DNA of 64,000 nucleotides. Origin: Bacillota bacterium (GTDB lineage: Bacteria > Bacillota > Halanaerobiia > B1SED10-174). A program made the translations under genes and the position numbers. The DNA is taken from NCBI GenBank assembly GCA_007122335.1, contig SKTZ01000029.1, forward strand, positions 5,593 through 69,592, read 5' to 3'. The notes under the pieces were generated by a model. It worked only from the letters and a program-made list of their open reading frames with translations. It was not told where the DNA came from and ran no database searches. This document shows positions 16,321-57,853 of this stretch, in pieces (the stretch's first letter is position 1; each line of letters begins with the position of its first letter).

Positions 16321-16345
16321 AAAGCCCCTCGGGGGCTTTTTTTTA
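16315..16345. terminator. bidirectional rho-independent terminator
   Basis: GCCCC-TCG-GGGGC hairpin flanked by A-run and T-run. Serves feoB (+) and the convergent activase operon (-). Confidence 0.75.
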
Positions 16346-17416: not shown

Positions 17417-17422
17417 TTTTTC

Positions 17423-31572: not shown

Positions 31573-31590
31573 AGGGGGGACCAGACAAAT

Positions 31591-32715: not shown

Positions 32716-32718
32716 ACC

Positions 32719-33396
32719 ATGAGTATTACAATTGCTAACTTTTTTAGTAATTTTGCTGAGATCTATGGTCCGATTTTTTCGGAACGAATTCCTCCCCTTT
32801 TAATTCAGCATATTCAACTGGTTTTTCTGGCCACGGGAATTGCAATTTTAATTGGGGTTCCTCTGGGTATTTTCCTAACCCGACCTGCGCTGCGCAAACA
32901 CAGCCAGAAGGTTCTTAATTTTGTTAACATAGGGCAGGCAGTCCCGGGTTTGGCCCTGATCGCGATATTCCTGCCTATTCTGGGGATAGGTTATATTCCT
33001 GCTGTTGTTGCACTGGTTATTTACGGACTCCTGCCAATTGTTCGTAATACAATAGCCGGGCTTGAAGCAGTAGATGATAAAGTTAAAGAAGCCGCCCGGG
33101 GAATGGGGATGTATAATAACCAGGTTTTATGGCAAATTGAATTTCCCCTTGCTTTCCCTGTTATTATGGCTGGAATAAAAACTTCTGCGGTAATAACCGT
33201 TGGAACTGCAACCCTGGCTGCCCTGATCGGGGGAGGCGGATTGGGAAGATTGATTTTTACTGGGATCTCCCTTTTCCGCCCTGAATTTATTCTTGCCGGT
33301 TCAGGTACTGCTGCTGTTTTGGCCATAATAATGGAAAAAGGCTTGAGTTTTTTTGAAAGGGTGGTGGTAAAAGAGCGAATGCCGCTGGACTTCTAA
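32719..33396 (+). CDS. ABC transporter permease (OpuCD-like)
   Basis: Second permease paralog of the operon. Confidence 0.75.
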   Translation: MSITIANFFSNFAEIYGPIFSERIPPLLIQHIQLVFLATGIAILIGVPLGIFLTRPALRKHSQKVLNFVNIGQAVPGLALIAIFLPILGIGYIPAVVALVIYGLLPIVRNTIAGLEAVDDKVKEAARGMGMYNNQVLWQIEFPLAFPVIMAGIKTSAVITVGTATLAALIGGGGLGRLIFTGISLFRPEFILAGSGTAAVLAIIMEKGLSFFERVVVKERMPLDF

Positions 33397-33447
33397 AAGA
33401 AGTGCTAACCAGGCAATTAGTTCCAAAAAAATGAGGAGGTTTGATTC

Positions 33448-34359
33448 TTGAATAAAAAAGTTTTAATTGGAGTAGTTGCAATTCTGGTGTTACTTGGTTT
33501 ATTTATGGTTTTTTCTCCAGAGGACGATCCTGCAATCACCGTAGCTTCTAAGATGTGGACTGAACAGTTTATTCTAGGAGAGATCTTATACCAGTACCTT
33601 GAAGCTGAAGGATATCCCGTTGAAGACCAGATTGGTTTGGGTGAGACAGATATTTTGCGCCCTGCCATTGAGACGGGTGAAATAGATGTTTACTGGGAGT
33701 ATACAGGAACCGTCCTGGTAACAGTTATGGGTGAAGAAGAAATTAGTGAGTCAGAAAAAGCATATCAAATGGTAAGGGACTGGGATATTGAAGAGAATAA
33801 TCTGGTCTGGCTGGATTATGCTCCGGCCAATAATACCTATACACTCATGGTCAGGGAAGAATGGGCAGATGAAAGAGGAATTGCAACTATTTCCGAACTG
33901 GGGGATTACATGGAAGAGAATCCGGATGAACGAATTCGCCTGGCCTTAAACGAAGATTTCTGGGAGCGCCCCGATGGAATTCCAGGGCTACAGGAACTTT
34001 ATGGCTTTGAATTTGATGGTGCCCAGGCAAGGTTTATGGCGATTGGTTTGACTTACGGGGCTTTGAATGAGGAAGAAGCAGAAGTAGCGATGGGATTTGC
34101 AACAGATGGCCGGATCCCTGCCTTTAATTTCCTCCTGCTTGAAGATGACAAGAGCTTTTTCCCGGCATACAATGTAACCCCGGTAATTCGGGCTGAGATT
34201 CTGGAAACCTATGATGGCCTGGAAGAAGCGATTAATCGTATCTCTCCCAGGCTTGATATGGAAACTTTAATGCGACTGAATATGCTGGTAGATGTAGAAG
34301 GGCAGGAGCCGGAAGATGTTGCAAGAGACTGGTTGCAGGAAGAGGGATTAATTGATTAA
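33448..34359 (+). CDS. glycine betaine-type substrate-binding protein (OpuCC/OpuAC family), membrane anchored
   Basis: N-terminal TM anchor followed by the periplasmic binding fold typical of betaine SBPs. TTG start after GAGGAGG. Confidence 0.7.
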   Translation: MNKKVLIGVVAILVLLGLFMVFSPEDDPAITVASKMWTEQFILGEILYQYLEAEGYPVEDQIGLGETDILRPAIETGEIDVYWEYTGTVLVTVMGEEEISESEKAYQMVRDWDIEENNLVWLDYAPANNTYTLMVREEWADERGIATISELGDYMEENPDERIRLALNEDFWERPDGIPGLQELYGFEFDGAQARFMAIGLTYGALNEEEAEVAMGFATDGRIPAFNFLLLEDDKSFFPAYNVTPVIRAEILETYDGLEEAINRISPRLDMETLMRLNMLVDVEGQEPEDVARDWLQEEGLID

Positions 34360-38091: not shown

Positions 38092-40779
38092 ATGGCGGAA
38101 ATCAGCGTTAAGATCAATGGGCAGGAAGTACAAATTGAAAAAGGAAAAACATTGCTTCAGGCTTGTGAAGAACTTGGTATAGATGTTCCAACACTGTGTT
38201 ATCATCCGCGGGTTGCAATTGAAGGAGCCTGCAGACTTTGCATGGTTGAGGACAAGAAATCAGGACAATTGATTGCTTCCTGTACTCTGGAAGCAGATGA
38301 TGGGATGGAAATAGAGACGGAATCCCCCCGGGTTGTTGAAGCCCGAAAACTGGTTTTGGATTTGCTCCTAGCCTCTCATGATGTTGATTGTTTTGCCTGT
38401 GAGAGAAATGGAGATTGCCGGCTTCAGGATTACTCCTACCGTTATGGAATTGAAAGAACGGCTTTTCCGGGAGAGCGGAGGGAGTTCCCTATTGATAACC
38501 AGAACCCTTTCTTTGAAAGGGATTATAACCGTTGTATCCAGTGCGGATTGTGTGTAAGGGCCTGTCACGAGATTCCCCAGGCCGGGGCCATTGATTTTGC
38601 CAACCGGGGTTTTTCCTCTGAGATAGCAACACCTTTCAATGTTCCCCTGGAGGATTCGACCTGTGTTTTTTGCGGGATGTGTGTGGAATTATGCCCGGTT
38701 GGTGCCCTGGTGCCCCGTTTGGACCGTTTCACCGGTAGGCCCTGGGAGATAGAAAAAGTAAGAACCACCTGTGCTTACTGTGGCGTGGGTTGTCAGATTG
38801 AATTGAATGTTAACGAGGACCGGGTTGTAGGGATCAGTGGCTATGGGGAAAGCGAACCCAATTATGGGGATTTATGTGTTAAAGGTAAATTCGGCTGGGA
38901 CTATATTCACCACCCCGAAAGACTAACCGCTCCCTTGGTCCGGAAGGAAGGCAAGCTTGTTCCAACCAGCTGGGAGGAAGCCCTCGATTATACCGCCCGA
39001 AAATTTAAGGAAATTAAGGAGGAACACGGTGGAGATGCTCTGGGAGGATTGACTTCAGCCAAGTGTACCAACGAAGAAAACTATCTTTTCCAGAAATTTG
39101 TTCGCGCTGCACTGGCAACCCATAATGTTGACCACTGTGCTCGCCTATGACACTCTGCTACAGTAGCCGGTCTGGCTACAGCATTTGGTAGTGGAGCAAT
39201 GACTAACTCTGTTGCGGAAATTGAAAAGGCTCCAGTTATCTTCATCATTGGATCCAACACTACAGAAGCCCATCCTGTAATTAGTTACCGGGTTAAAAAG
39301 GCCGCCCGGGAAGGCAGCAAGATTATTGTCGCCGATCCAAGACGGATTGAACTGGCTGAATATGCTGATATCTGGATGCAGCACCGACCCGGGACCGACG
39401 TAGCCCTGCTGAACGGGCTGATCCACATTATTTTGAAGGAAAACCTTTGGGATCGAAAATTTGTAGAGGAACGAACCGAGGGTTTTTCGGAATTAGAAAA
39501 AGCCGTTTCTAAATTTACTCCGGAATTAGTAAGCCAAATTACTGGTGTTCCAACAGAGCAATTAACAGAAGCTGCCCGCATTTATTCCACCGCTGACGCA
39601 GCTTCAATTCTCTACGCCATGGGGATCACCCAGCACGTTTCTGGGACCGATAATGTTCTGACTCTGGCCAATCTGGCCATGCTGACCGGAAATTTGGGTA
39701 AACCGAATGCAGGTGTAAACCCGCTTCGAGGACAGAACAATGTCCAGGGAGCCTGTGATATGGGTGGATTACCCAATGTGTATCCGGGTTATCAAAAAGT
39801 TGATGACCCCGCAGTCGCAGCAAAATTTGCCGAAAGCTGGGGAAATGTACCCGGAAATGAACCGGGCCTTACAATGATGGAAATGATGGAAGCGGCTGAA
39901 AAGGGAGATATTAAAGCACTGTATATTATGGGTGAAAACCCGGTGCTGAGCGAGCCGGATAGTACCCACAGTAAGGAAAATCTTTCTGCTCTTGATTTCC
40001 TTGTTGTGCAAGATATTTTCCTCAGCGAAACTGCGGAACTGGCTGATGTGGTTTTACCGGGTGTTTCGTTCGCCGAGAAGGAAGGAACTTTTACCAATAC
40101 CGAACGAAGGGTTCAAAGGGTAAGGCAGGGAATCCGGCCTCTGGAAGGAGCCATGGGTGACTGGAAAATTACCCTGGAACTGGCCAAACGAATGGGGTAT
40201 GACTGGAAGTACAATTCCCCTGAAGAAATATTTAATGAGATGGCAGCTTTAACACCTTCATATGCTGGTATTGATTATGACCGGATTGAAAAACAAGGCC
40301 TGCAGTGGCCCTGTCCCGACAAAAATCACCCGGGAACAAGGTACCTGCATCAAGGGAAATTCCCCAGGGGGAAAGGAAAGTTCCACGGGATAGACTTTAT
40401 TCCGCCCGCGGAACTTCCTGACGAAGAATATCCCTTCCTGCTCACCACCGGCCGCAAACTAACCCACTACCACACGGGAACCTTGAGTCGGAGAAGTTCA
40501 GGTCTTTCCACCATAGATCCCGAAGAAATGGTGGAGATCAATCCCAAAGATGCAGAAGCACTCGGACTGGAGGAGGGGGATAAAATGTTAATTGCCTCCC
40601 GCCGGGGAGAGGTGACAGCTCGGGCCAAACCAACCGAAAGAGTTCCGGAAAAAATGATCTTTATGACCTTCCATTTCAGTGAATCTGCTGCAAATGTTCT
40701 TACCAACCCTGTATTGGATCCTGTAGCTAAAATACCGGAGTTTAAGGTTTGTGGTGTAAAAATAAAAAAAGATGAATAA
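38092..40779 (+). CDS. fdhA: NAD-linked formate dehydrogenase catalytic (alpha) subunit, selenocysteine-containing (in-frame TGA 39148-39150)
   Basis: Track ORFs 38092..39150 and 39199..40779 are one frame. N-terminal [2Fe-2S]/[4Fe-4S] NuoG-like domain, then HNVDHCARL-[TGA][20 protein letters not shown]. This matches the conserved Sec/Cys-His active site of molybdopterin FDHs. The remainder is a molybdopterin oxidoreductase domain. Confidence 0.85.
39156..39185 (+). promoter_or_regulatory. SECIS-like stem-loop for the fdhA selenocysteine
   Basis: GTAGCC-GGTCT-GGCTAC hairpin (39163-39179). It starts 13 nt after the TGA and has a GGUC-containing apical loop, as in enterobacterial fdhF SECIS elements. 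Confidence 0.5.
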
Positions 40780-40783
40780 AAAA

Positions 40784-40811
40784 AGGAGGGGATTTATCCC
40801 CTCCTTTTTTG
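40784..40811 (+). terminator. rho-independent terminator
   Basis: AAGGAGGGG-ATTTAT-CCCCTCCTT hairpin followed by TTTTTT. Confidence 0.8.
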
Positions 40812-41024: not shown

Positions 41025-41061
41025 AGTAAGAGGACTGTTGTGGCTAACGGAGGTTTTACTT

Positions 41062-41553
41062 ATGTTTTTTTCCAAGGATGTCCTGGGAATGACAATAATT
41101 TTATATATTTTCTGGCTCCTTATTTCCTGGAGTTTACACTGGGTTAACCTTTTGCTGGGCTTTACCTTTGCTTTTTTTGTGGCCATCTTTATGGCCCCGG
41201 AAATCATAAAAAAAGAGGAAAGGCCGCCGTTTATTGCCCGAGGATTTTTTTTCCTGCGGTTTGTGTTTATTTTAATAAGGGAGATAATCAAAGCCAACAT
41301 CCAGGTTGTGCAGATTGTCCTCAGTCCCAAACTCAATATAACCCCCCAGTTTGTTGAAGTTAAGCAGGTCATGAGGTACCCGGTAACCCAGGTTTTGTGG
41401 GGCAACTCCATCACGCTAACACCGGGGACTTTAACCATAGATGTTGACGATAAAAAAATCCTGATTCATTTTTTAACCGGGGACCTTGTTTCTCACTTCC
41501 CCGATAACCCCGTTGGTAAAGCACTGGTCGAATTCGAGGGGAGATCAAAATGA
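41062..41553 (+). CDS. mrpE: Mrp antiporter subunit E (MnhE/MbhA-like)
   Basis: Family pattern of MnhE. ATG 41062 after GGAGG. Confidence 0.7.
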   Translation: MFFSKDVLGMTIILYIFWLLISWSLHWVNLLLGFTFAFFVAIFMAPEIIKKEERPPFIARGFFFLRFVFILIREIIKANIQVVQIVLSPKLNITPQFVEVKQVMRYPVTQVLWGNSITLTPGTLTIDVDDKKILIHFLTGDLVSHFPDNPVGKALVEFEGRSK

Positions 41554-41813
41554 TTGAAACTGCCTTTTTGGTGGCTGCTATTCTCCTGATGGTGAATGTT
41601 ATATTTTGCCTTTATCGGGCAGCAGTTGGTCCTACTCCGGGAGACCGGGTTGTCGCTATTAATATGATTACAAGTAAGACCATTGCGGTTATGGCCCTGG
41701 TTTCTTTTATGTACCATGAAGAACTGTTTCTTGATGTTGCAATTACTTATACCCTGATCGGTTATACAGCGACCATTTGTGTGGCTAAATACCTGGAATT
41801 GAAGAGGTTATAG
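41550..41813 (+). CDS. mrpF: Mrp antiporter subunit F (MnhF/PhaF)
   Basis: 87 aa, three TM helices. Start overlaps the mrpE stop (ATGA). Confidence 0.7.
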   Translation: MIETAFLVAAILLMVNVIFCLYRAAVGPTPGDRVVAINMITSKTIAVMALVSFMYHEELFLDVAITYTLIGYTATICVAKYLELKRL

Positions 41814-41825
41814 GAGGAGCAAGAA

Positions 41826-42146
41826 ATGCGGGAAATAATTGTAATGCTGTTTTTATTCACCGGTGTCTTCTTTTTTACAGTGGGAACAATCGGGGTTTTG
41901 CGCCTTCCCGATGTTTTTTGCCGCCTCCATGCCAATACAAAAAGTGATACCCTTGGTGTTGGTTTGGTCCTTTCTTCTTTAGTGCTTTATGAAGGACTTT
42001 CTTCAGCGGGAGTTAAAATAGTATTTATGATAATTTTTATCTTGATAACCAACCCCACTGCAGGCCATATTATTGCCCGAGCTTCTTATGATACAATTGT
42101 GGATTGGACCGGGCAGCTGGCCCGGCAAAAGGGTGGTGAGGAATAG
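41826..42146 (+). CDS. mrpG: Mrp antiporter subunit G (MnhG)
   Basis: 106 aa, MnhG-like pattern (VLRLPDVFCRLHANTKSDTLG). Confidence 0.7.
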   Translation: MREIIVMLFLFTGVFFFTVGTIGVLRLPDVFCRLHANTKSDTLGVGLVLSSLVLYEGLSSAGVKIVFMIIFILITNPTAGHIIARASYDTIVDWTGQLARQKGGEE

Positions 42147-42382
42147 TGGCGATCTTAGATCTCCTTTTATTGAGTATTCTTGTTCTCTGTGCTTTGGCCG
42201 CGGTTCGAACCCGGGATCTTCTTGGGGCAGTAATAATATATGCCGCTTATAGTCTTTTGATGGCAATTATCTGGCTACAACTGGGCTCACCTGATGTTGC
42301 GATTACGGAGGCTGCACTGGGAGCTGGAGTTACTACCATACTTATGATTGCCACCATTAGTAAGACGGGGAGGTATGAATGA
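42146..42382 (+). CDS. DUF4040-type membrane subunit (N-terminal MrpB/MbhD-like)
   Basis: 78 aa, two TM helices, GTG start overlapping the upstream stop. Position and size match MbhD-type split MrpB subunits. Confidence 0.55.
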   Translation: MAILDLLLLSILVLCALAAVRTRDLLGAVIIYAAYSLLMAIIWLQLGSPDVAITEAALGAGVTTILMIATISKTGRYE

Positions 42383-42735
42383 TGCGTCAAATTATCCCTT
42401 TTTTCTTAACCCTGGTCCTGGGAGCTGCTCTGCTACTGGTGGTCGCCGAAATGCCTCCGTTTGGGGATATAAATAACCCCGCTCATAATGTAGTTAGCGA
42501 ACGCTACCTGAATCAGGGAGTTCGGGAAACCGGAGCACAGAATATTGTCACTGCTATAATCACGGACTACCGTGCCTATGATACTCTGGGAGAGGTCACG
42601 GTTTTGTTTGCTGCTATTGCTGCAGTGCTTACTGTTTTAAACAGGTTGCGCTTGGGAGTAATCTGTCCTGAAGACAGGGAAAGGGGACTGACAGATGAGG
42701 ATGCAGGAGATCCTGATACTGAAGATAGTTGTTAG
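42379..42735 (+). CDS. MnhB-domain subunit (MrpB/MbhE-like)
   Basis: NIVTAIITDYRAYDTLGEVTVLF matches the MnhB signature. Confidence 0.6.
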   Translation: MMRQIIPFFLTLVLGAALLLVVAEMPPFGDINNPAHNVVSERYLNQGVRETGAQNIVTAIITDYRAYDTLGEVTVLFAAIAAVLTVLNRLRLGVICPEDRERGLTDEDAGDPDTEDSC

Positions 42736-43126
42736 ATTTGTTATTCCCTTTATCCAGGTCTATGGATTTTATGTAATTACTGCTGGACATCTTAGTCCTG
42801 GTGGTGGTTTTGCCGGGGGAACAATTGTTGCTGCCAGCATGGTTTTATATGCCCTGACTTTTGATGCTTCCCAGGGTCTTGAAAAACTCTCCCATGAAAG
42901 AGCATCCCTGTTTGAGAGTCTGGGAGCTATCTGGTATGTTGCCCTTGGTTTTTTGGGAATCCTTGTCGGAGGTAATTTCCTTACAAATGGGCAGATTGGA
43001 ATTCCTCTTGGCACACCGGGCTACCTGATAAGTGGGGGTTTGATTCCCCTTCTTTCTTTTGGGATTGGAATAAAAGTCGCAGTTACCGTTGTCAGCCTTT
43101 ATTATTCGCTGGTTGAGGAGGATTAG
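42695..43126 (+). CDS. MrpB C-terminal-like subunit (MbhF-like)
   Basis: GHLSPGGGFAGG motif typical of the MrpB second half. Start may be ATG 42701. Confidence 0.55.
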   Translation: MRMQEILILKIVVRFVIPFIQVYGFYVITAGHLSPGGGFAGGTIVAASMVLYALTFDASQGLEKLSHERASLFESLGAIWYVALGFLGILVGGNFLTNGQIGIPLGTPGYLISGGLIPLLSFGIGIKVAVTVVSLYYSLVEED

Positions 43127-43128
43127 TT

Positions 43129-43506
43129 ATGGCCGAAGCCCTTGCAGCCCTGGGCCAGAATTATTTCTTTTATTATGCTCTTATTCTTTTTATGGTTGGA
43201 TTTTATACCACACTGAGCCATTCAAATATTTTAAAAAAAATCATTGGGATCAATATAATGGAAACCTCAATATTCCTATTTTTTGTTGCCCTTGGTTATG
43301 TTGAGGGTGGGCAGGCTCCAATAATGGGTAGAGGAGCCGAAGGAGGGCCTTATATGAATCCCCTGCCCTCGGCCTTGATTCTTACTGGAATTGTTGTATC
43401 GGTAAGTATTACGGCTTTTGCCCTGGCTTTGATGGTTAAACTTTATCATTTTTATGGAACCCTTGACGCTGATGAAATTGTTATGCTGCGAGGAGAAAGA
43501 CAATGA
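43129..43506 (+). CDS. mrpC: Mrp antiporter subunit C (NuoK/MnhC-like)
   Basis: 125 aa, three TM helices, NuoK-like. Confidence 0.7.
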   Translation: MAEALAALGQNYFFYYALILFMVGFYTTLSHSNILKKIIGINIMETSIFLFFVALGYVEGGQAPIMGRGAEGGPYMNPLPSALILTGIVVSVSITAFALALMVKLYHFYGTLDADEIVMLRGERQ

Positions 43507-44993
43507 TATATCAGCTACCTGTTCTAATTGTGGTCCAACTTCTTTTGGGTTCTTTTCTTATGCCCATTGTGGGGAGGATTCGCAATCAGCTAATCCCCCA
43601 TATTTCGCTGTTTTTAATGGGTCTCGCCAATGTTTTCTCTATAATTTTACTTTTCCGGGTTGTCCGGGAAGGAAACATTCACTACCACCTTGGAAACTGG
43701 GCACCTCCCTGGGGCATTGAAATTGTTGCAGACCTTTTAGGTGCCTACATGGCAGTTATTATTACGGGAATAAGCTTTTTGGTCCTGGTTTTTGCCTGGC
43801 GGGATATTCAGAGAGAAATAAATTACGCCCTCAGGGGCTGGTTTTATACCCTGGTCCTACTGATTTCCGGGGCAATGGTAGGAATGGTTTTAACCAATGA
43901 TTTGTTCAATCTTTATGTTATGGTTGAAATCGTATCCCTTTGTGGTCCCGCCCTTGTGGCTATCCGGAACAACCGGCTTGCTGTGGAAGCAGGCTTTAAA
44001 TATCTGGTAATGATTGCTCTTGGTTCGGGCCCGATTCTTTTCGGGATTGCTCTAATTTATATGATTACCGGCCATTTGAACATGACTTTCGCCGGCCAGG
44101 AAGTATTAAATGTAATTCATGAATATCCCAGAGTTGCTCTTTTAGCCCAGGCCTTTTTCATCGTAGGTTTTGGGGTTAAGGCGGCCCTTTTTCCCCTGCA
44201 TGTCTGGCTCCCAGATGCTTATACTTCCGCACCTTCCCCCTCAAGTGCTCTTCTGGCCGGACTTGCGGCAAAAGTATATATAGTTGGTTTGACCCGGGTC
44301 CTTTTCAATCTTTATGGAATTGACGTACTTGCTACCACACCGCTTTTTACCATTCTCAAAGTAATGGCGGTGGCAGGGATTATCATGGGTTCAATAATGG
44401 CTCTAAACCAGAAAGATATAAAAAGGTTGGTGGCCTATTCAAGTGTTGCTCAAATTGGGTACATATTCCTGGGGCTTAGCCTGGCTACAGGGTTTAGTGT
44501 AACCGGGGCTATTCTCCACATTTTGAATCATGCCTTAATAAAGTCAATGATGTTTCTCTGCTGTGGAGTAATTATTTACCAGAAAAAAACCAGCAATGTG
44601 GATGAACTGGGGGGAGTGGGGAAGGAATTTCCCATAACCATGATTTGCTTTGGTATTGGTGCTTTTGCCATGGTTGGTATTCCCATGCTCAATGGTTTCA
44701 TTAGCAAATGGTATATCAGCCTGGGAGCCCTGGAATATGGGGGTCTGGCTGGTTTAATGTATTTGCTTGTGATTATTATCAGCAGCCTTTTAAATGGTCT
44801 TTATTATCTACCGGTATTAATTAAAGCCTTTTTGGGTGGGGATTCCCAAAAAGAAACTGTTTTTGATAAAGCACCAATTACTTTGATATTGCCAATTGTA
44901 ATTTTGGCTGCAGGTATAATTATTCTGGGGTTATTACCCTTTGTTCCGCTGCAAATTGCTGCAGACGCGGCCCAGCACTTGTTGGGCCAGTAA
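43503..44993 (+). CDS. mrpD: Mrp antiporter subunit D (NuoN/NuoM-like proton-conducting membrane transporter)
   Basis: 496 aa, ~14 TM. Conserved antiporter-like motifs (GFGVKAALFPLHVWLPDAYTSAPSPSSAL). Confidence 0.8.
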   Translation: MIYQLPVLIVVQLLLGSFLMPIVGRIRNQLIPHISLFLMGLANVFSIILLFRVVREGNIHYHLGNWAPPWGIEIVADLLGAYMAVIITGISFLVLVFAWRDIQREINYALRGWFYTLVLLISGAMVGMVLTNDLFNLYVMVEIVSLCGPALVAIRNNRLAVEAGFKYLVMIALGSGPILFGIALIYMITGHLNMTFAGQEVLNVIHEYPRVALLAQAFFIVGFGVKAALFPLHVWLPDAYTSAPSPSSALLAGLAAKVYIVGLTRVLFNLYGIDVLATTPLFTILKVMAVAGIIMGSIMALNQKDIKRLVAYSSVAQIGYIFLGLSLATGFSVTGAILHILNHALIKSMMFLCCGVIIYQKKTSNVDELGGVGKEFPITMICFGIGAFAMVGIPMLNGFISKWYISLGALEYGGLAGLMYLLVIIISSLLNGLYYLPVLIKAFLGGDSQKETVFDKAPITLILPIVILAAGIIILGLLPFVPLQIAADAAQHLLGQ

Positions 44994-45028
44994 AAAACAC
45001 TATGAATTAACAGGAGGAGGCAACCGGG

Positions 45029-46525
45029 ATGGTACAGGGAGTAGAAACGCATTCGCATTTACCGGGATTGGTCGTATTAATTCCAATAATTTTTACTGCA
45101 TTGGTAGGGATTTTCCAGAAAAGGTCATTTTTGCTCCGCAACTGGCTTTTTATTAGCGGCGCGGCAATTACCTTTGCTGGAATGGCTTTGATGGGCTATT
45201 ATGTCCTGCAGGGAAGAATACTGGTTATCAACTATCTTGTGGCCATGTTTCCGTTTACCATTACATTCAGAGTGGATACCCTAAGTTTTCTTATTGGGGT
45301 TGTTGCTGCAGGAGTATGGCTATTGGCTTCAATATATTGCTTGCAGTACATGAAAGATGACCATGCTCCCAACCGTTATTTCCCGGTTCATATTTTTACC
45401 CTGGCTGGTTCGCTAGGGGTATTTCTTGCGGGGAACCTCTATACTTTTTTCCTCTTTTATGAGGTAATGGCTTTTTCCGGTTACTTATTTGTTATCCATG
45501 CTGAAACTCCAGAAGCTTTTAAAGCTGGATCCAGGTACCTGATGGTAACCATCCTGAGTGGTATCCTGGTTTTCACTGGGGTTATTATTACCTATCAGCT
45601 GGCAGGAACTCTTGACCTGGGTTCTTTAGGAATCATTCCCGAGGCCAATGTTGTCTCCCTGATCGCCTTTGTGGCTTTTATAATTGGTTTTGGTTTTAAG
45701 GCGGGTCTTTTTCCGCTGCATACCTGGTTGCCTGCTGCTCACCCGGTTGCGCCGTCTCCAGCGAGTGCTTTGCTTTCTGGGATTTTGATCAAAACTGGAG
45801 CTTACGGAATAATCCGGGTAACCTATAACGTTTACGGGATCGAGATGATGCGGGATACTGGCTGGCCCACTATTCTGCTGATTTTCGCTGCGATTACCAC
45901 TCTTTACGGATCCATGGCTGCTCTGGTTCAGGATAATCTTAAAAGACGTCTCGCTTATTCAAGTATCAGTCAGATCGGATATATACTTATGGGGGGAGCC
46001 CTTCTTACCGAGCGTGGCCTGGCTGGTGATGTTTTTCACATTGTCAGTCATGCGACAATCAAAAGCACCTTGTTTTTAACTGCAGGGGCAATTATTACCA
46101 AGACGGGGATTAAATATGTAAGCCAGATGGCAGGAGTGGGGCGAAAAATGCCCTATACCATGGGGGCTTTTACCCTTGCTGCACTGGCTATGATCGGGAT
46201 TCCACCTTTAAATGGTTTTGTTAGTAAATGGGCCCTGGCCCTGGGTGCTTTAGATGCTGGCCAGCCAGGCTATGCGGTTGTTCTTTTAATCAGTAGTATG
46301 TTGAACGCCCTGTACTATTTACCAATTGTAATTCTTGCTTATTTCCGCAAACCGGAAGAAGGGACAGTTCTTTATGGAGATATGTTGCGTTACGATGAAG
46401 CCAGGGCGAGTATGCTTGTGCCAATTTTAATTCTGGCTCTGAGTTTGGTCATATTCAATATCCTACCTGTTAACCTGCCACTGGTTCTGGCCGAATTCTC
46501 CGCACGGGCCCTTTTCCAGCACTAG
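45029..46525 (+). CDS. second MrpD/NuoM-like antiporter subunit
   Basis: 498 aa paralog (GFGFKAGLFPLHTWLPAAHPVAPSPASALLS). Confidence 0.8.
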   Translation: MVQGVETHSHLPGLVVLIPIIFTALVGIFQKRSFLLRNWLFISGAAITFAGMALMGYYVLQGRILVINYLVAMFPFTITFRVDTLSFLIGVVAAGVWLLASIYCLQYMKDDHAPNRYFPVHIFTLAGSLGVFLAGNLYTFFLFYEVMAFSGYLFVIHAETPEAFKAGSRYLMVTILSGILVFTGVIITYQLAGTLDLGSLGIIPEANVVSLIAFVAFIIGFGFKAGLFPLHTWLPAAHPVAPSPASALLSGILIKTGAYGIIRVTYNVYGIEMMRDTGWPTILLIFAAITTLYGSMAALVQDNLKRRLAYSSISQIGYILMGGALLTERGLAGDVFHIVSHATIKSTLFLTAGAIITKTGIKYVSQMAGVGRKMPYTMGAFTLAALAMIGIPPLNGFVSKWALALGALDAGQPGYAVVLLISSMLNALYYLPIVILAYFRKPEEGTVLYGDMLRYDEARASMLVPILILALSLVIFNILPVNLPLVLAEFSARALFQH

Positions 46526-46541
46526 GAAGGATGTAGATATA

Positions 46542-48956
46542 ATGGTTAATGCAATCGGGCCGAGCATGCAAAACGCGTTGCTTGTAACCGCGATATTTGC
46601 TCCCCTTCTGGCCGCTGGAGCCCTGTTTAAAGTAAGGGTTTTTAAAACGGCACACAAAATTGCTCTTGTGGCAATTGGGCTTGCTGTTGGGGCGTTAGTT
46701 GCTGTTGTTGGGGAGCCGATAGAATTTATCTGGGAAGGTTTCCTCGGGGTAAGATTTGTCCTTGCTCCTGATTACATGGGGATTTTCCTTGCCATTATGG
46801 CCCTTGTTTTATGGTTTCTTTATACTCTTTTTAGCCTTGATTTTATGCAGAGAAGCCATAATTCAATTCGTTTTCTTTTCTTTTCCCTGCTTTCCCTGAC
46901 TGGAACCCTTGGTGTTTTTCTTGCAGGGGATCTTTTTACAATGTTTGTCTTCTTTGAATTTATGGCCTTTGCCTCTTTTCCCCTGGTTATCCATGAGGAG
47001 ACTGAAGAGGCTCACCGGGCGGGCAAACAGTACCTTTATATTGGAGTGCTGGGAGGCCTGACTATTTTGCTGGGCCTTTTTCTGCTGTACCATCGCCTGG
47101 GAACTCTTGTATACAGTGAACTGGGAGGAGCACTGGCTGGTGGGTCCCCGGTGGATATAATAATTATCGCTGGTCTGCTGCTCGGGTTTGCCATAAAGGC
47201 GGGCCTGGTTCCAGTCCACTTCTGGGTACCCCAGGGTTATGTTGCCGCCCCGGCACCTGGTAGCGCAATCCTTTCTGCCGTTCTTAAAAAATGTGGAGTT
47301 TTTGGGATTATCCGTTTGCTCTTTTTAATGGCTCCGATGTTAACTTTCGGGCAGGTAATACTTGGTTTTGGTTTATTAACAATGGTTTTGGGATCGCTAC
47401 TGGCCTTTTTTGAGCATAACGGGAAAAGAATACTTGCTTACAGCAGTGTAAGCCAGGCGGGTTATATTATGGTAGGGTTCGGCGGAGGCGCGATAATGGC
47501 TGAAACTGGAGTAATGGGAGGTCTTGGTTCTTTTTTCCACGTTCTCAACCATGCTCTCTTCAAAGGAAGCCTATTTTTAGCTTTGGGTTATACTTTTCTG
47601 CGAACCCGGGAATTCAATATTTATCGCCTGGGTAACCTCTGGAAGAAGATGCCCTTTACAACCATTTTAGCAGTTGTTTCTGCAGCCGGGCTAATGGGAT
47701 TACCTCTTTTTAACGGTTATCCCAGCAAAACAATGATTCACCACGCCATTACTTTCGCCGAAAGTGAAACTCAAATGGCGATATACGGATATGCTGAAAC
47801 CCTTTTTAATATTGGTGCCGCAGGGACCACTGCTTATTGCATCAAGCTGATTTATAATGTTTTCTTCGCTCCCCGGGAGCCTGAGTTTACAGGGGAAAAA
47901 GAAAAACCCCTGGTTCAGGGGATATTTATGGTTTTAATTGTAGCCATGCTTTTTATCGGGCTGTTTCCAACTCTGACCATGGAAACCATTATTTTCCCCG
48001 CTGCAGGTGCTTTTTTCCTGGACCCTGATTTTGTTGATTATAAATTAGGTGGGTACAATTTTTTCAATGCTTATGATCTGCGGGGGGCTTTTAAAATTCT
48101 TTTAATTGGTCTGGGGTTAACCGCTATCAACCTTGTTTTGGTCAAAAAACGAATAGACCTTCCCCGCTGGTTATCAATTGAAAGGCTTGTTTTGAATCCT
48201 TTAATTAAGGCTTTAGGGGCAATTCTTGGTGCTTCATATTATTTTATTAATAATCGGCTAATGGGTTTTGGGACTGGTCTCGTAGAAGGCTATAAAAAAG
48301 GACTTCCCTTTATTAACCACCTGGATGGCTATGTTGATGAAATAGGAAAGAGAACAGATGATCTTTTTGCCGGATTTGTTTTCAAGACCTCGGGTAGCCA
48401 TGACCAGAGAAAGCTGATCAATCTGATTTTAGATTATGGAAAGGAAGAAAAAGAAGAAGCTGAGCTGCATGGGTTCTGGAATTGGTTAACGGGTGAAGGA
48501 ATTTTACAACCAGTTGATAAAGAGAATGTTGATTCCCCCGATTTTATTGGAAGTGTTGAAGATTTCAGCAAAAGAATTCAGGAAATGATGGAAAAAGAAG
48601 AGTTGACGGAAAAAGAGAAAAATCGCGTAGAAAGACTTTTTGCCCGGCTTATGGCTTTAGAAGAAAAGGGCATTTCCCCAAAAAGTATGGAGGAGAAAAG
48701 TTATCCTCATTTGCGGATTATCCAGCGAATGGAAGAGATATTCCAGTACCTTACGGGGAATATACAAACTGTTGACGGGTTGGAAAAAGACCAGGAAAAA
48801 GCCCGGGTAGACAAGAAAAAAATCGAAAAAAAGAAGGAAGCTCTGGATTCCGGCTGGGGCAAGTGGAGCGTGTTGAACCTTAATTTTGACATGATTATCC
48901 TTGCTGTTACTCTGGTAATTGCGGTTATATTGCTGGTATTTTTTGCCCAGATTTAA
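46542..48956 (+). CDS. MrpA/NuoL-like antiporter subunit with ~230-aa hydrophilic helical extension and C-terminal TM anchor
   Basis: N-terminal ~520 aa antiporter core (GFAIKAGLVPVHFWVPQGYVAAPAPGSAILS). Then a charged, coiled-coil-like region (EEKEEAELHGF...KEKNRVERLFARLMALEEKG...). It ends with a single TM (MIILAVTLVIAVILLVFFAQI). Confidence 0.75.
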   Translation: MVNAIGPSMQNALLVTAIFAPLLAAGALFKVRVFKTAHKIALVAIGLAVGALVAVVGEPIEFIWEGFLGVRFVLAPDYMGIFLAIMALVLWFLYTLFSLDFMQRSHNSIRFLFFSLLSLTGTLGVFLAGDLFTMFVFFEFMAFASFPLVIHEETEEAHRAGKQYLYIGVLGGLTILLGLFLLYHRLGTLVYSELGGALAGGSPVDIIIIAGLLLGFAIKAGLVPVHFWVPQGYVAAPAPGSAILSAVLKKCGVFGIIRLLFLMAPMLTFGQVILGFGLLTMVLGSLLAFFEHNGKRILAYSSVSQAGYIMVGFGGGAIMAETGVMGGLGSFFHVLNHALFKGSLFLALGYTFLRTREFNIYRLGNLWKKMPFTTILAVVSAAGLMGLPLFNGYPSKTMIHHAITFAESETQMAIYGYAETLFNIGAAGTTAYCIKLIYNVFFAPREPEFTGEKEKPLVQGIFMVLIVAMLFIGLFPTLTMETIIFPAAGAFFLDPDFVDYKLGGYNFFNAYDLRGAFKILLIGLGLTAINLVLVKKRIDLPRWLSIERLVLNPLIKALGAILGASYYFINNRLMGFGTGLVEGYKKGLPFINHLDGYVDEIGKRTDDLFAGFVFKTSGSHDQRKLINLILDYGKEEKEEAELHGFWNWLTGEGILQPVDKENVDSPDFIGSVEDFSKRIQEMMEKEELTEKEKNRVERLFARLMALEEKGISPKSMEEKSYPHLRIIQRMEEIFQYLTGNIQTVDGLEKDQEKARVDKKKIEKKKEALDSGWGKWSVLNLNFDMIILAVTLVIAVILLVFFAQI

Positions 48957-48972: not shown

Positions 48973-49437
48973 ATGAATATTAAACATTTTATTGTGAATG
49001 TTGAAGCAGTAATTTCCCGTGGGGACAAGTGGTTGATAATTAAACGGAGTGAAAAGGAAGACCACGCACCTGGAGCCCTTGCTCTGGTGGGGGGGAAGGT
49101 AGAGGTTGACAAAGGAAATGTTATCGAAGATGTTTTAGAAAAAACTCTACACCGGGAGATTGAAGAAGAAGTCGGTATTGAGATAGAAAAAGATCTAGAG
49201 TATGTGGAAAGTAAATTTTTTGTCGCCGATGACAATCAGCCTGTTGTTGACCTTGTTTTTTTATGTCAATATAAAAGCGGTGAGGCAACTCCCGCAGACC
49301 CAGAGGAAGTTGCTGATGTATTCTGGAAAACCGAAGATGAGATCTTGGCAGATCCCAATACACCAGAATATTTAAAAAGGAGTTTGCAGAAAGCTTGGGA
49401 AGTAAAAAATGAAATGGATCCAGGATTAAATTCCTGA
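48973..49437 (+). CDS. NUDIX hydrolase
   Basis: Nudix box GGKVEVDKGNVIEDVLEKTLHREIEEEVGIEI. ATG 48973 after GGGGAGG. No terminator separates it from the mrp cluster. Confidence 0.8.
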   Translation: MNIKHFIVNVEAVISRGDKWLIIKRSEKEDHAPGALALVGGKVEVDKGNVIEDVLEKTLHREIEEEVGIEIEKDLEYVESKFFVADDNQPVVDLVFLCQYKSGEATPADPEEVADVFWKTEDEILADPNTPEYLKRSLQKAWEVKNEMDPGLNS

Positions 49438-49474
49438 CTCCCCAGGGGGATTGGATTCTCCTGGGAATAAAAAA

Positions 49475-49502
49475 AGCTCCCGTATGAGGGAGCTTTGTTT
49501 TA
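49475..49502 (+). terminator. rho-independent terminator
   Basis: AGCTCCC-GTATGA-GGGAGCT hairpin followed by TTGTTTT. Confidence 0.7.
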
Positions 49503-49504
49503 AG

Positions 49505-49591
49505 TGGTGCCGAAGGTGGGATTCGAACCCACACGAAGGTAACTTCACACGACCCTGAATCGTGCGCGTCTGCCAATTCCGCCACTTCGGC
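49505..49591 (-). tRNA. tRNA-Leu (anticodon CAG)
   Basis: The reverse complement reads GCCGAAG-TG-GCGG...ACGC-CACGA-TTCAGGG-TCGTG-(long variable arm)-GTGGG-TTCGAAT-CCCAC-CTTCGGC-ACCA. It has a 7-bp acceptor stem, a CAG anticodon loop, a long extra arm and an encoded CCA. Confidence 0.85.
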
Positions 49592-49782
49592 TTACACATA
49601 TAATATAAAGTATCGTGGTCTCCTTGTCAAGGAATATCTGGTATTTTTGGCAGGAATAATGTGCTTTATGACGAATTGAAAAAGGTGGGTGTTTAACAGG
49701 AAAGAAAATTATTAGGCAAGTGGGATGGATTGGTTTTGCGAGGATTGAAAAATATTTTTGGTGCGAGGAGGGCAGGTTCTAT

Positions 49783-50232
49783 ATGAGCAAGGATCTGGTC
49801 GCAGAAAAGTCAAACCTTATTAAGGTGTTACAGACGGAGCAAAAGAAGGAAGGTTTTATCTCTGATGCTGCAATAGAGAGAATAGCTGGAGAATTTAACC
49901 TTCCTGTTGTAGAGGTTGAAGGTGTTGTGAGTTTTTATACCCAGTTCAAAAGGGTTCCCCCGGGCAAATACCAGATTATGGTTTGTGATGGGACTGCATG
50001 TCATATTATCGGTTCAACCCTGATCTTGAACTGGCTTACTGACGAACTTGGCATAAAAGACGGGGAGACCGATGAAGAAGGTCTCTTTTCTTTGGAAAGC
50101 GTTGCCTGCCTGGGTTGTTGCAGTTTAGCCCCGGTAATCAGCATTAACGGCAAGGTCTATGGTAAGCTTGATCGCAAAAAACTATTAAAAATTGTAGCAG
50201 ACTTTCGGAAAAAGGAGGCAGCTGGATCATGA
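49783..50232 (+). CDS. NuoE/HydC-family [2Fe-2S] ferredoxin subunit (second copy)
   Basis: VCDGTACHIIG...ACLGCCSLAPV four-Cys pattern. ATG 49783 after GAGGAGGG. Confidence 0.8.
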   Translation: MSKDLVAEKSNLIKVLQTEQKKEGFISDAAIERIAGEFNLPVVEVEGVVSFYTQFKRVPPGKYQIMVCDGTACHIIGSTLILNWLTDELGIKDGETDEEGLFSLESVACLGCCSLAPVISINGKVYGKLDRKKLLKIVADFRKKEAAGS

Positions 50233-51950
50233 TAAAAAGAATTAAAGTGGGGATGGCCAGCTGTGGTATTGCTGCCGGAGCAGGTGAAGTGCTGGAATTA
50301 CTGCAGGAAATGGCCGGAGATAATAAAGTTGTTGAAGTTGGTTGTATCGGACACTGTTATGCTGAACCTCTTGTTGAAGTTGAAACAGATTCCGGGGACT
50401 ATATTTTTGAAAAAGTCCAACCCAAGGAAGAAGACCTGCAGAAGATTATTGACCTGGATGAATTTTCTCGCTTTCAACCCCATTCCCCGCGTGTTGATAA
50501 AGAAAGACAATTGATTACCTCTCTCGCCGGGAAAATTGTTCCCACCTCTCTTGAGGAATACAGGGCTAACAAAGGATACGAGGGCTTGAAAAAAGCTCTG
50601 GAAATGGAACCGGATGCAATTGTTGACGAAGTGAAAACTTCCAAGTTGCGTGGCCGTGGTGGGGGAGGTTTTCCCACGGGATTAAAATGGAGCTTCCTGG
50701 CAGCCAAGGACAGCGAGCAAAAAGTTTTAATTTGCAATGCTGACGAGGGAGATCCGGGGGCTTTCATGGATCGGACTTTAATGGAATCACTTCCCCATCA
50801 GGTTTTGGAAGGAATGTTGATCGGGGCGAAAGCAACTGGTGCCCGCCAATTATTTATTTATTGCCGGGCGGAATATCCCCTGGCAGTAAAAAATTTGAAT
50901 ATTGCGATTGAACAGATTGAAAAAGAAGGCCTTAATATAATCGATGGAGAGCCCGTTAAAATTATGGTTAAAGAAGGAGCGGGGGCATTTGTTTGCGGAG
51001 AAGAAACTGCCCTCATTCACTCCCTTGAAGGGAAGAGAGGGACTCCAAGGTATCGCCCCCCATATCCAACTGACTATGGTTTCCACGGCTATCCCTCGGC
51101 AATAAACAATGTTGAAAGTTTTGCGAATATCCCCCTGATTGTCCGGGATGGAGGGGAAAATTTTGCAGCTACGGGAACCGAGAATAGCACGGGAACAAAA
51201 CTCTTTGCTCTCGCCGGAGACCTGGAGTATTCTGGACTTGTTGAGGTTCCCATGGGAATTTCTATAGGGGAAGTTGTCTACGACATTGGAGGGGCTGAAC
51301 CGGGAAGTGTTAAGGCTGTCCAGATTGGAGGCCCCAGCGGTGGTTGCATTCCTGCGGAACACTTTGATACTCCCATTGACTACGACTCTCTCACTTCCCT
51401 GGGTGCAATTATGGGGTCAGGTGGCTTGATTGTAATTGGAAATAACCGTTGCATGGTTGAAACTGCTCGCTATTTCCTGGAATTTACAACCAGGGAAAGC
51501 TGCGGGAAGTGTACTTTCTGCCGGATCGGAACCAAGCGAATGCTGGAGACTCTGGAAAGAATAACCGGTGGGGAAGGTGGTCCCGAAGATGTAGAGCTCC
51601 TCGCTGATCTGGGTAAGAAAATTATTCAGGGATCCTTGTGTGGGCTCGGTCAAACCGCTCCCAACCCGGTGCTTTCTACCCTCAAATATTTCAATAATGA
51701 ATACCTGGCTCACGTCGAAGAAGGCCATTGTGCGGCCATGGAGTGCAAGGCCCTGGTTGATGTTTTTATCGATAGGGAAACCTGCATTGAATGCGGGCAG
51801 TGTATTAAGAATTGCCCCGTTGATTGTATAAGCGAGGATTACGTGATTGATAATGAAATTTGCACCCGCTGCAACAGCTGTATTGAGGTTTGTCCTGTAG
51901 ATGCCATTGCCCGGGTTGCGAAAGGAGGGGAAGTCAGTGTCGGAAATTAA
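50229..51950 (+). CDS. NuoF/HydB-family NAD(H)-binding flavoprotein with N-terminal [2Fe-2S] and C-terminal 2x[4Fe-4S] domains (second copy)
   Basis: GRGGGGFPTGLKW motif and CxxCxxCxxxCP x2 at the C-terminus. Paralog of 36325..38076. Confidence 0.85.
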   Translation: MIKRIKVGMASCGIAAGAGEVLELLQEMAGDNKVVEVGCIGHCYAEPLVEVETDSGDYIFEKVQPKEEDLQKIIDLDEFSRFQPHSPRVDKERQLITSLAGKIVPTSLEEYRANKGYEGLKKALEMEPDAIVDEVKTSKLRGRGGGGFPTGLKWSFLAAKDSEQKVLICNADEGDPGAFMDRTLMESLPHQVLEGMLIGAKATGARQLFIYCRAEYPLAVKNLNIAIEQIEKEGLNIIDGEPVKIMVKEGAGAFVCGEETALIHSLEGKRGTPRYRPPYPTDYGFHGYPSAINNVESFANIPLIVRDGGENFAATGTENSTGTKLFALAGDLEYSGLVEVPMGISIGEVVYDIGGAEPGSVKAVQIGGPSGGCIPAEHFDTPIDYDSLTSLGAIMGSGGLIVIGNNRCMVETARYFLEFTTRESCGKCTFCRIGTKRMLETLERITGGEGGPEDVELLADLGKKIIQGSLCGLGQTAPNPVLSTLKYFNNEYLAHVEEGHCAAMECKALVDVFIDRETCIECGQCIKNCPVDCISEDYVIDNEICTRCNSCIEVCPVDAIARVAKGGEVSVGN

Positions 51951-53976
51951 ACTGACCATAGACGGAAAACAGATTACAGCCCCCAGAGGGAAGACCATAC
52001 TTGAAGTGGCCAAAGAAAATGGGATAGAAATCCCGACCATGTGTCACGATGATAGAATAAGCCAGACCACCTCCTGCTTTGTTTGTATTGTCCGGGAAGG
52101 GAAGAATGGAAACTGGATGCCCTCCTGCTCTGCAGAAGCCCAGGATGGGATGGAAGTTGATGCATCAAGTGATCTAGTTCGGGATATGCGGAAAACCGCC
52201 CTGGACCTGCTCCTTTCTGAGCATAGCGGAGATTGCGAGGCTCCCTGCACGATTTCCTGTCCCGCCCATGCCCGGGTTGAAGAATACGTGAGAGCAGGAC
52301 GGGACGGTGATTTGCGGAAAACACTGGAAATTGCCAAGGAGCGTATTCCCCTGCCCCTCTCAATTGGAAGGGTTTGTCCGCGGTTTTGTGAAAAGGACTG
52401 CCGGCGTAATGTGTTAGATAATGAAGGTGTTGCCATTAACGATTTCAAACGCATTTCGGCCGACCTTTATTATGATGAATATATGGAGGAACGGAAAGAA
52501 CTGACCGGACAAAAGGTTGCTATTATCGGTTCTGGCCCTGGCGGACTGGCAACTGCCTATTTCCTGAGGTTAGAAGGTGTGGCCTCTGATATTTACGAAA
52601 AATTACCTGAGGCCGGAGGTATGCTCCGTTACGGTATTCCAGAATACCGCTTGCCCAAGAAGGTTTTGGATAAAGAACTGGCTCATTTTGAAAAAATGGG
52701 TGGTATTAAAATATACTGTAATAACGAATTGGGCAAAGACATCCAGCTGGATAAACTCAAAAAAGAATATGATGCAGTTGTGGTAGCTGTTGGTTCCTGG
52801 AAGGCCAGCGGAATGAGAACTGAAGGGGAAGAGCTGGCCAGGGGAGGCATTGACTGGCTGGAAGAGCTGGCCCTTAATGGCTGGAAAGGTGAAGACCCTG
52901 GAGAAACCATAGTTGTAGGTGGTGGAAACACCGCCATGGACTGTGTACGCAGTGCGCTTCGCCTGACTGATGAACCTGTTCACTGTATGTACCGCCGGAC
53001 GGAAAAAGAAATGCCGGCCGAGCAAATTGAGATAGATGAAGCACGGGAGGAAGGTGCCCGGTTTAATTTCCTAACTCAGCCCATTAAACTTCGCAGAGAA
53101 AACGGGAAACTTGTTCTGGAATGCTTGCGGATGGAACTGGGTGAACCAGATGCTTCGGGAAGAAGGCGTCCCGTGCCCATTGAAGGCAGTGAATTTGAAG
53201 TTGCCGCAGATACTGTTATCGCTGCTATCGGACAGAAAACCCTTGCTCCAAAAGGGCTTCCAACTAACAAGTGGGGCGACGTAGATGTTGAAGAAGCTGA
53301 CTGCCGGGCAGAAGGTAATGTTTTTGCTGCAGGTGACTGTGTAAGTGGTCCAGCAACAGTTGTCGAAGCAGTTGCCGGTGGAAGAAGAACTGCCCTGGGA
53401 ATACTGGCCTACCTTAAAGGAGAAGAGTGCCAGCTTCCCCGTCAGATTAATGTCTCGCGCGGACACTGGCAGAGCATGTCCGAAGACGATCTGGTCTACC
53501 TTTTTGAACCCGATAAAAACAAAAGAGTCCCTCTGCGTTTGATACCCCTGGAAGAGAGAACTTCTACCTTTAAAGAAGTTAGTTATACCTTTACCGAAGA
53601 GGAAATTTTGGAAGAAGGAAAACGCTGTATTGAGTGTAGCTGTACTGCCAAAGGAGATTGTAAGCTTAAAGACTTCTCTGAAACCTATGGAGCCCATCCG
53701 GAAACATTTGGTGGAGAGAAAGGAAATAATACCTACAATTCCCGCCATCCCCACATAATAATGGATAACGGAAAATGTGTAAAATGTGGGATTTGTGTAA
53801 AAGTCTGCAGCGAGGTCGTTAACGAATATCTCCTGGGCTTTAAAAACCGGGGCTTTAAAACCAAGGTTGAAACTGCATTTGATACAACCCTTCCTGAATT
53901 CTGCACCGATTGCGGTGAATGTATTGAAGCCTGCCCGGTGGGAGCCCTGGATTGGAAAAAGAAAAAGGACGAATAA
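51937..53976 (+). CDS. GltD/NfnB-like NAD(P)H-dependent FAD oxidoreductase fused between NuoG-type N-terminal [2Fe-2S] and C-terminal His-ligated/[4Fe-4S] cluster domains
   Basis: N-terminal ferredoxin-like [2Fe-2S] region ([22 protein letters not shown]...MCHDD...CFVC). Then the GltD-type two-cluster motif ([10 protein letters not shown]...CPRFCEKDC) and the FAD/NAD(P) Rossmann motif ([15 protein letters not shown]). The C-terminus carries [21 protein letters not shown] and [15 protein letters not shown] 51937 after AAAGGAGGGG. Confidence 0.7.
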
Positions 53977-57209: not shown

Positions 57210-57239
57210 TAATTGCTAGTAATAAGTGGTTATGTTATA

Positions 57240-57830
57240 ATTAATTGCGCATCGGCGGTGCAGTATCCTAGTCAGCTTTGTACTCTTGAAGGCGGGCCTA
57301 AAAATCCGTCAAAGGGCACATCGATGAAGTTCCTGGTTGTGGCTACTGACGCCCAGTCGGGGGTCATAGCTGGGAGTTAAGGATTTCGGGGCGATCCACA
57401 ATGGCATGTGGGCGTGGACCCTGATTCCGCGGAGGCCCGGATACAAGTCGGGAGCTAGTGTCCGGGGAACCTGCAGAAACCGCAAGGTAGCTGCAGTGTA
57501 GCCTGCTTTGAGTGGTAAGGGGAGAGGAGGGTATTAAGTCCTGCTTCCCAGGGGCCCTAGGAAGTAGTTCCTTTACCTCTGAAACCCTTACTGCAAAAGA
57601 AGCTAGGGAGTAATTAAGGCTGTCAAGGAAAACTTCTAGGCTGTCCCACTGTGGGGATAGACCGGGGATTGAAGTGTGGTCTGAGTGGTAATCCAGCCCT
57701 GCATATGGTGACATTGCAGAGTGATTTAAAGGGAAACCGCCAAAAGGGCAACCTTTTGGAGATCACTGGGAAAGCCTGCTGGACCTAAGCCGCAGCATTT
57801 ATCCGGTCTATTACCGCCGATGCGCCTGGA
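57240..57830 (+). ncRNA. ole: OLE (ornate, large, extremophilic) RNA candidate
   Basis: A ~580-nt GC-rich, ORF-free interval lies between ispA and a small membrane-protein gene. It is closed by a perfect 12-bp terminal helix GCGCATCGGCGG (57247-57258) / CCGCCGATGCGC (57814-57825). It contains many internal hairpins, for example CTGCAG..CTGCAG. The flanking gene order matches the published OLE locus. Strand inferred from synteny. Confidence 0.7.
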
Positions 57831-57853
57831 ATTATTTTTTGGGGGGAAAAATA

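Follow-up and report, generated by a model that had tools for sequence, protein, structure and literature searches.

A 64,000-nucleotide stretch of DNA from a Bacillota bacterium of the Halanaerobiia (contig SKTZ01000029.1, positions 5,593 to 69,592 of the forward strand; the whole stretch is referred to here as the window) contains ten co-directional genes on the plus strand, mostly overlapping, which fill positions 41062-48956 and whose products all match Mrp/Mbh membrane families in Pfam and NCBIfam. The cluster was interpreted, with a probability of roughly 0.85, as a self-contained, stand-alone group-3 Mrp (CPA3) cation/proton antiporter. It is a unit separate from the adjacent formate dehydrogenase (FDH) and transhydrogenase, and not a subunit of them. 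The observations bearing on this are gene content, conserved residues, a fold model, transcription signals and the distribution of related clusters. An earlier note on this DNA had offered a stand-alone Mrp as one reading, and the domain content, the cluster's own transcription signals and the unrelated flanks in relatives bear it out.

Gene content and architecture of the large subunits

According to the Pfam and NCBIfam assignments, the gene order is MrpE, MrpF, MrpG, MbhD-like, MbhE-like, MrpB, MrpC and three NuoL/M/N-type subunits, and every Mrp subunit type from A to G is represented, at the domain level, within the one co-directional cluster. The mrpE gene (41062-41553, 163 amino acids (aa); Pfam MNHE, 4.7e-31) equals the annotated gene of relative L001 in length, and its ATG at 41062 was read from the sequence as lying seven nucleotides (nt) past a ribosome-binding site (GGAGG, 41050-41054). 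It is followed by mrpF (41550-41813; MrpF_PhaF, 5.1e-18), mrpG (41826-42146; PhaG_MnhG_YufB, 3.9e-28, with TIGR01300 above its cut-off), an MbhD-like (DUF4040) gene (42146-42382; MbhD, 2.6e-22), an MbhE-like gene (42379-42735; MbhE, 9.8e-13), mrpB with its MnhB domain, equivalent to MbhF (42695-43126; MnhB, 1.3e-27, with NF006248 above its cut-off), and the NuoK-like mrpC (43129-43506; Oxidored_q2, 3.6e-23). The three large antiporter-like subunits are encoded by mrpD1 (43503-44993, 496 aa), mrpD2 (45029-46525, 498 aa) and a longer last gene (46542-48956, 804 aa), with Proton_antipo_M matches of 2.8e-65, 7.1e-58 and 2e-55. Neighbouring genes overlap at five of the nine junctions, by 1 to 41 nt, and are 2, 12, 16 and 35 nt apart at the other four. 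This content and order had been read from the sequence before as E-F-G, three small genes, C, D, a D paralogue and an A/NuoL-like subunit, and the profile assignments confirmed it, together with its likeness to Mbh complexes: E-F-G-MbhD-MbhE-MnhB-C-D is the order of mbhA-H.

Because the MbhD-like and MbhE-like proteins match positions ~600-690 and ~710-790, respectively, of full-length MrpA models (NCBIfam PRK12650, PRK12648), they are best taken as the two halves of a split MrpA C-terminal domain and not as pieces of MrpB. Among the three small genes only the third, which carries the motif GHLSPGGGFAGG, encodes an MnhB/MrpB-domain protein, separate and 143 aa long. The three-way split of MrpB proposed earlier therefore holds for that gene and not for the first two. 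It is MrpA that is split three ways, with its N-domain in the last gene of the cluster and its C-domain in the MbhD-like and MbhE-like genes.

The three large subunits are old paralogues with a mutual identity of 27-36%. The Glu of transmembrane helix (TM) 5 and the Lys residues of TM7, TM8, TM11 and TM12 are kept in all of them, with E142/E145/E139, K226/K224/K219, K257/K255/K250 and K402/K400/K396 as the channel residues of D1, D2 and the long subunit, and K347/K345/K341 beside them; the presence of three NuoL/M/N-type subunits, as first noticed, thus goes with intact Lys/Glu channel residues in each. In the long subunit these residues are invariant in 60 homologues, with the exception of K396 (TM12), whose invariance is confined to the 14 closer ones. 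For each of the three, the best solved relative is MbhH of Pyrococcus furiosus (6cfw_H), followed by MrpD in the case of mrpD1 and mrpD2 and, for the long subunit, by MrpA (7qru_A), slightly ahead of MrpD.

The long subunit was modelled with AlphaFold2 on a 60-sequence alignment (mean predicted local distance difference test score, 79.6). The model has a 14-TM core to about residue 490, TM15 at 510-535 and then a 64-residue helix (546-609), past which lie a helical stretch of low confidence and a terminal TM at 782-803; in the overall annotation of the protein TM15 is placed at ~513-535, the amphipathic helix at ~541-609 and the terminal TM at 778-803. In a hydrophobic-moment profile, residues 541-605 are amphipathic and too low in hydrophobicity for a TM helix. 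When the model was searched with Foldseek, the top full-length matches were the MrpA chains 9a6h_A, 7qru_A and 6z16_A with ~840 aligned columns, and NuoL chains were aligned over ~650 columns, reaching well past the core. On this model the subunit is of the MrpA N-domain/NuoL type, with core, TM15, lateral amphipathic helix and terminal TM, and, as far as architecture goes, the structural matches justify the earlier description of the last subunit as A/NuoL-like.

Between the lateral helix and the terminal TM, residues 620-775 (window positions 48399-48866) form an insert of ~150 aa, 40% charged and rich in Glu and Lys, where model confidence is low. Similar sequence was found only in the closest relatives (42-96% identity), the region being shorter or different elsewhere, and the extra length of the window's long subunit is attributed to a clade-specific charged insert. 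The C-terminal extension, if it served as a strap, would be expected to lengthen with the number of large subunits, but no simple relation of this kind was seen: long subunits measure ~650-730 aa whether a cluster has two, three or four large ones.

Class assignment and distribution of related clusters

In the window MrpA is encoded in three genes and the order is EFG-first, in contrast to group 1 Mrp (mrpABCDEFG); in group 2 (mrpA'CDEFG) mrpA is fused to mrpB, whereas MnhB is a separate protein here, and on this ground the alternative of an ordinary group-2 Mrp was dropped. All Mrp domains were found in an irregular order, with no canonical mrpA and with multiple mrpD-type genes, as in group-3 Mrp, for which an irregular order, the lack of a full-length mrpA and a sometimes multiple mrpD have been described (PMC5703873, PMC8415708). 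Complexes of the Mbh/Mbx/Mbs, formate hydrogenlyase (FHL) or Ech type are distinguished by NuoB/C/D/H/I homologues (MbhJ-N). In a Pfam scan of every open reading frame (ORF) of 110 aa or more in the window none of these families was found, in agreement with the earlier remark that no such module or hydrogenase is adjacent, and none were found among the recurrent neighbours of related clusters.

The stand-alone mrpEFGBB'CD of P. furiosus (PF1147-53) is the studied group-3 example (PMC8415708). It shares with the window cluster its stand-alone state, its group, the E-F-G-first order, split or fused small subunits of the MbhD/E/F type and the absence of a redox module, but it has one antiporter-like subunit and no equivalent of the MrpA N-domain, against three in the window, one of which is long and MrpA/NuoL-like. 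The domain inventory and the Glu/Lys channel residues are shared with canonical Mrp (Bacillus pseudofirmus, 7qru; Anoxybacillus flavithermus, 6z16; Dietzia, 7d3u), on whose MrpA the long subunit superposes over its full length in Foldseek; canonical Mrp follows the order ABCDEFG, whereas the window has EFG...CDD-A(N), with MrpA in three genes, one extra MrpD paralogue and the charged insert ahead of the last TM. At the TM8 position the long subunit has Lys (K250), where MrpA and NuoL carry His. The Mbh/Mbs membrane arm (6cfw, 6u8y) shares the mbhA-H order and provides the best sequence matches (MbhH, MbsH/H'), and the three antiporter-like subunits with a lateral-helix subunit recall NuoL-M-N of the complex I arm (3rko). 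Both of these have the MbhI-N or NuoB, C, D, H, I module, which was found neither in the ORFs scanned in the window nor among the recurrent neighbours in related loci.

Similar arrangements have been published from annotation. Three mrpB genes were reported in the mrp cluster of Natranaerobius thermophilus (Ito et al., PMC5703873), whose operon is not described in detail in Mesbah 2009; the acetogen metagenome-assembled genome (MAG) "Unc8" of NPL-UPA2 contains "MrpEFGBBBCD, MrpDD", interpreted as a Na+/H+ antiporter, with nuoEF near fdh and nuoEGF near folD (PMC6305446); and Natranaerofaba carboxydovora has Mnh clusters, one of them located within its Na+-Rnf locus and likewise read as a Na+/H+ antiporter (PMC8359318). 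With these three the window shares the list and order E, F, G, three 'B' genes, C and three D-annotated genes, as well as an alkaline or haloalkaline, anaerobic, acetogen-type setting, and with Unc8 also nuoEF near fdh and a NuoEF-type set near folD. In none of the three reports was the last subunit called MrpA/NuoL-like with a lateral helix.

For the distribution survey 87 loci were fetched, 63 of which had complete related clusters. Three large subunits were present in 34 of these, four in 24, two in three, and five or six in two; the exact gene order of the window occurred in 19 of the 63, the others being near variants, and the last large gene was the long one, with at least 600 aa, in 61. 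Hosts include Halobacteroidaceae, Syntrophomonadaceae, Lachnospiraceae, Oscillospiraceae, Hungatella, Erysipelotrichaceae, Dethiobacter, Anoxynatronum, Izemoplasmatales and Actinomycetota, among others. The word "unusual", used earlier of a stand-alone Mrp of this kind, does not fit a module of such frequency whose arrangement has been published (PMC8415708, PMC5703873, PMC6305446); the feature is largely ordinary: it is already known, is frequent among anaerobic Firmicutes and is regularly interpreted as a Na+/H+ antiporter.

The closest relative genome is a soda-lake Halobacteroidaceae MAG (L008, 94% identity), and the window itself probably stems from a soda-lake member of this family; Mrp is to be expected in such a habitat. 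The entire neighbourhood of the window is retained in a MAG at 83% identity; at 45% identity or below, the ten-gene module is retained and the flanks are different, and conservation of the neighbourhood is therefore limited to close relatives. Neighbours were surveyed by clustering of flanking ORFs and, for the 133 ORFs in tight linkage, by a Pfam census. The sole recurrent partnership was rnfCDGEAB directly upstream with apbE directly downstream, in ~13 related loci (L003, L004, L015, L018, L021, L026, L038, L041, L044, L045, L047, L079 and L084), an embedding which suggests a unit of Na+ pump plus antiporter and has a published precedent in Natranaerofaba carboxydovora. Some MAGs of Syntrophomonadaceae, Dethiobacter and Clostridiales additionally have, next to a complete Mrp cluster, runs of antiporter-like genes only, consisting of two or three D2-type subunits and a long subunit without small Mrp subunits (L025, 84-5245 on the minus strand; L024, L043, L020).

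The importance of the cluster itself is limited, as it is one more group-3 Mrp of the kind on which anaerobic Firmicutes, haloalkaliphiles among them, rely for Na+/H+ homeostasis. In this class, three or four antiporter-like subunits stand in a row with a NuoL-type lateral helix and without a redox module, a point that bears on the origin of the complex I membrane arm. The class occurs in many gut and sediment anaerobes, and its frequent rnf-Mrp-apbE embedding points to a testable pairing of Na+ pump and antiporter.

Borders of the probable transcription unit and alternative readings

Directly past the stop codon of the upstream FDH alpha subunit gene (fdhA), a hairpin resembling an intrinsic terminator (GGAGGGGA-TTTA-TCCCCTCC) stands between an A-run and a T-run (40779-40810, plus strand). 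It was placed on the minus strand by the scan; it is palindromic, and on the plus strand its stem is followed by TTTTTT. This strong, terminator-like hairpin would set the FDH operon apart from the mrp genes. The 250-nt mrp leader was searched with Rfam for a riboswitch, such as a Na+ or Li+ sensor; none was found, all hits there being at chance level. At the other end, a NUDIX hydrolase gene (48973-49437, plus strand; start inferred) begins 16 nt past the stop of the long subunit and is probably co-transcribed with the mrp genes; its position beside mrp is conserved only in the close relative L001. A bidirectional hairpin (49473-49496, annotated on the plus strand) forms a terminator-like end of the unit, 5' of a convergent transfer RNA gene, tRNA-Leu(CAG) (49505-49591). 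Since terminator-like hairpins bracket them, the mrp genes, probably with the NUDIX gene, appear to be transcribed as a separate unit.

The cluster lies, as the earlier note had stated, between two soluble NuoEF-containing operons, and it might be the ion-pumping membrane arm of the flanking FDH or Stn/Nfn-like enzyme, that is, a redox-driven pump without the NuoB/D/H interface. The mrp genes adjoin both enzymes here, as they do in the two relatives of 83% and 94% identity; fdhD is located just downstream of the cluster in L002 and an FeFe hydrogenase upstream in L073; two Actinomycetota MAGs (L035, L042) have a selenocysteine-type fdhA, 46-59% identical to that of the window, at ~2.6 kb upstream of an Mrp cluster of this type; and the charged insert of the long subunit has no assigned role. 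Against this, unrelated genes stand between fdhA and mrp in both Actinomycetota MAGs, the terminator hairpin separates fdhA from mrpE, mrp is set off from the Stn-like operon by a terminator and a tRNA gene of opposite orientation, the flanks are different in most lineages, and the neighbours match solved soluble complexes (8oh5, 9bov and 9n5u for Stn/Nfn; 6tg9 and 7vw6 for FDH). To our knowledge, each known coupling of an Mrp-like arm to a redox module employs NuoH/NuoB/NuoD homologues (PMC8165549), which are absent from the ORFs scanned in the window. The suggestion of a membrane partner for the flanking modules is accordingly very unlikely, the least credible of the readings considered, and a functional link of FDH and Mrp based on the Actinomycetota loci was set aside, in view of the intervening genes, the terminators and the few lineages.

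Also very unlikely is a second possibility, in which the cluster supplies the membrane arm of an Mbh/Mbx/Mbs- or FHL-like complex and the catalytic genes, of NuoB/C/D/H/I type, lie elsewhere in the genome, even though the first eight genes of the cluster follow the mbhA-H order and MbhH is the best solved homologue of all three large subunits. No such genes occur among the recurrent neighbours of the 63 clusters or, for the 133 linked ORFs, among the 25 families listed of 104 found, and the mrp cluster has no equivalent of MbhI or MbhM. In membrane-bound hydrogenase the hydrogenase module stands in place of the MrpA N-domain (PMC8415708); the MrpA/NuoL-like long subunit fills this position in the window, so that the docking end would be occupied.

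Several points weigh against the stand-alone group-3 Mrp as well. By the NCBIfam sequence models the long subunit is no closer to MrpA than to MrpD, the equivalog cut-offs for MrpA or MrpD are reached by none of the subunits, the confidence of the structural model is low in the C-terminal 200 residues (past ~600), and ion specificity, direction and stoichiometry are assigned by homology. As a stand-alone Mrp, the subunits would be arranged in the membrane in a row E/G/F - B - (MbhD/MbhE) - C - D1 - D2 - long subunit, which the lateral helix and terminal TM of the long subunit would strap together, in the way that NuoL spans NuoM and NuoN. With three proton channels, the antiporter would exchange Na+(K+) for H+ electrogenically and would serve cytoplasmic pH and Na+ homeostasis and the interconversion of Na+ and H+ gradients in a haloalkaliphilic anaerobe. 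A bolder version, which we regard as unlikely, would make this widespread class a free-living form of the complex I L-M-N arm, with a row of three to four antiporter-like subunits held by the NuoL-like lateral-helix subunit of the separate last gene, an H+/Na+ stoichiometry above that of canonical Mrp and a cytoplasmic charged insert that could offer a soluble partner, e.g., the adjacent FDH, a site for docking or regulation.

Flanking enzymes and other genes of the window

Upstream of mrp, NuoE-like and NuoF-like genes precede fdhA (38092-40779, plus strand), which was assembled from two same-frame ORFs joined by an in-frame TGA at 39148-39150. Because of the motif DHCARL-U-HSATV, this codon probably specifies selenocysteine; a fold resembling a selenocysteine insertion sequence 3' of the TGA scored no higher than shuffled sequences do (z = -0.14). 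The matches of FdhA are to soluble FDHs, among them 6tg9 and 7vw6 (both NAD-dependent) and 7qv7. Downstream, past the NUDIX and tRNA-Leu genes, NuoE-like and NuoF-like genes and a gene for a 691-aa protein (49720-53976, plus strand) lie directly 5' of folD. Matches to the 691-aa protein cover residues 4-673 of 9bov_A and 2-672 of 8oh5_C (chains of 1172-1178 aa) and most of the chain of 9n5u_A, which is named NfnA; the protein looks like a transhydrogenase subunit of the StnC/NfnA type without the C-terminal molybdopterin-like half, and the operon is taken to be of the Stn/NfnABC electron-bifurcating transhydrogenase type (PMC10482914, PMC7483475). By these matches, both flanking NuoEF operons are predicted to encode soluble enzyme types.

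Beyond the Stn-like set follow folD, xseA, ispA, dxs and other housekeeping genes. A full-length ornate large extremophilic (OLE) RNA (57239-57833, plus strand; Rfam RF01071, 495.7 bits) sits between ispA and an ORF of 189 aa (57839-58408) without a Pfam match, with dxs next. This ORF occupies what we take to be the usual position of oapA beside OLE RNA. Upstream of the FDH operon, an OpuA-type glycine betaine transporter of the ATP-binding cassette family (30889-34359, plus strand), with genes for two permeases, a CBS-domain ATPase and a substrate-binding protein, fits a halophilic host. Three neighbouring genes on the minus strand (16343-19403), for a BcrAD/BadFG-type ATPase and two DUF2229 (CoA enzyme activase) proteins, form a putative activase system for a 2-hydroxyacyl-CoA dehydratase-like enzyme.

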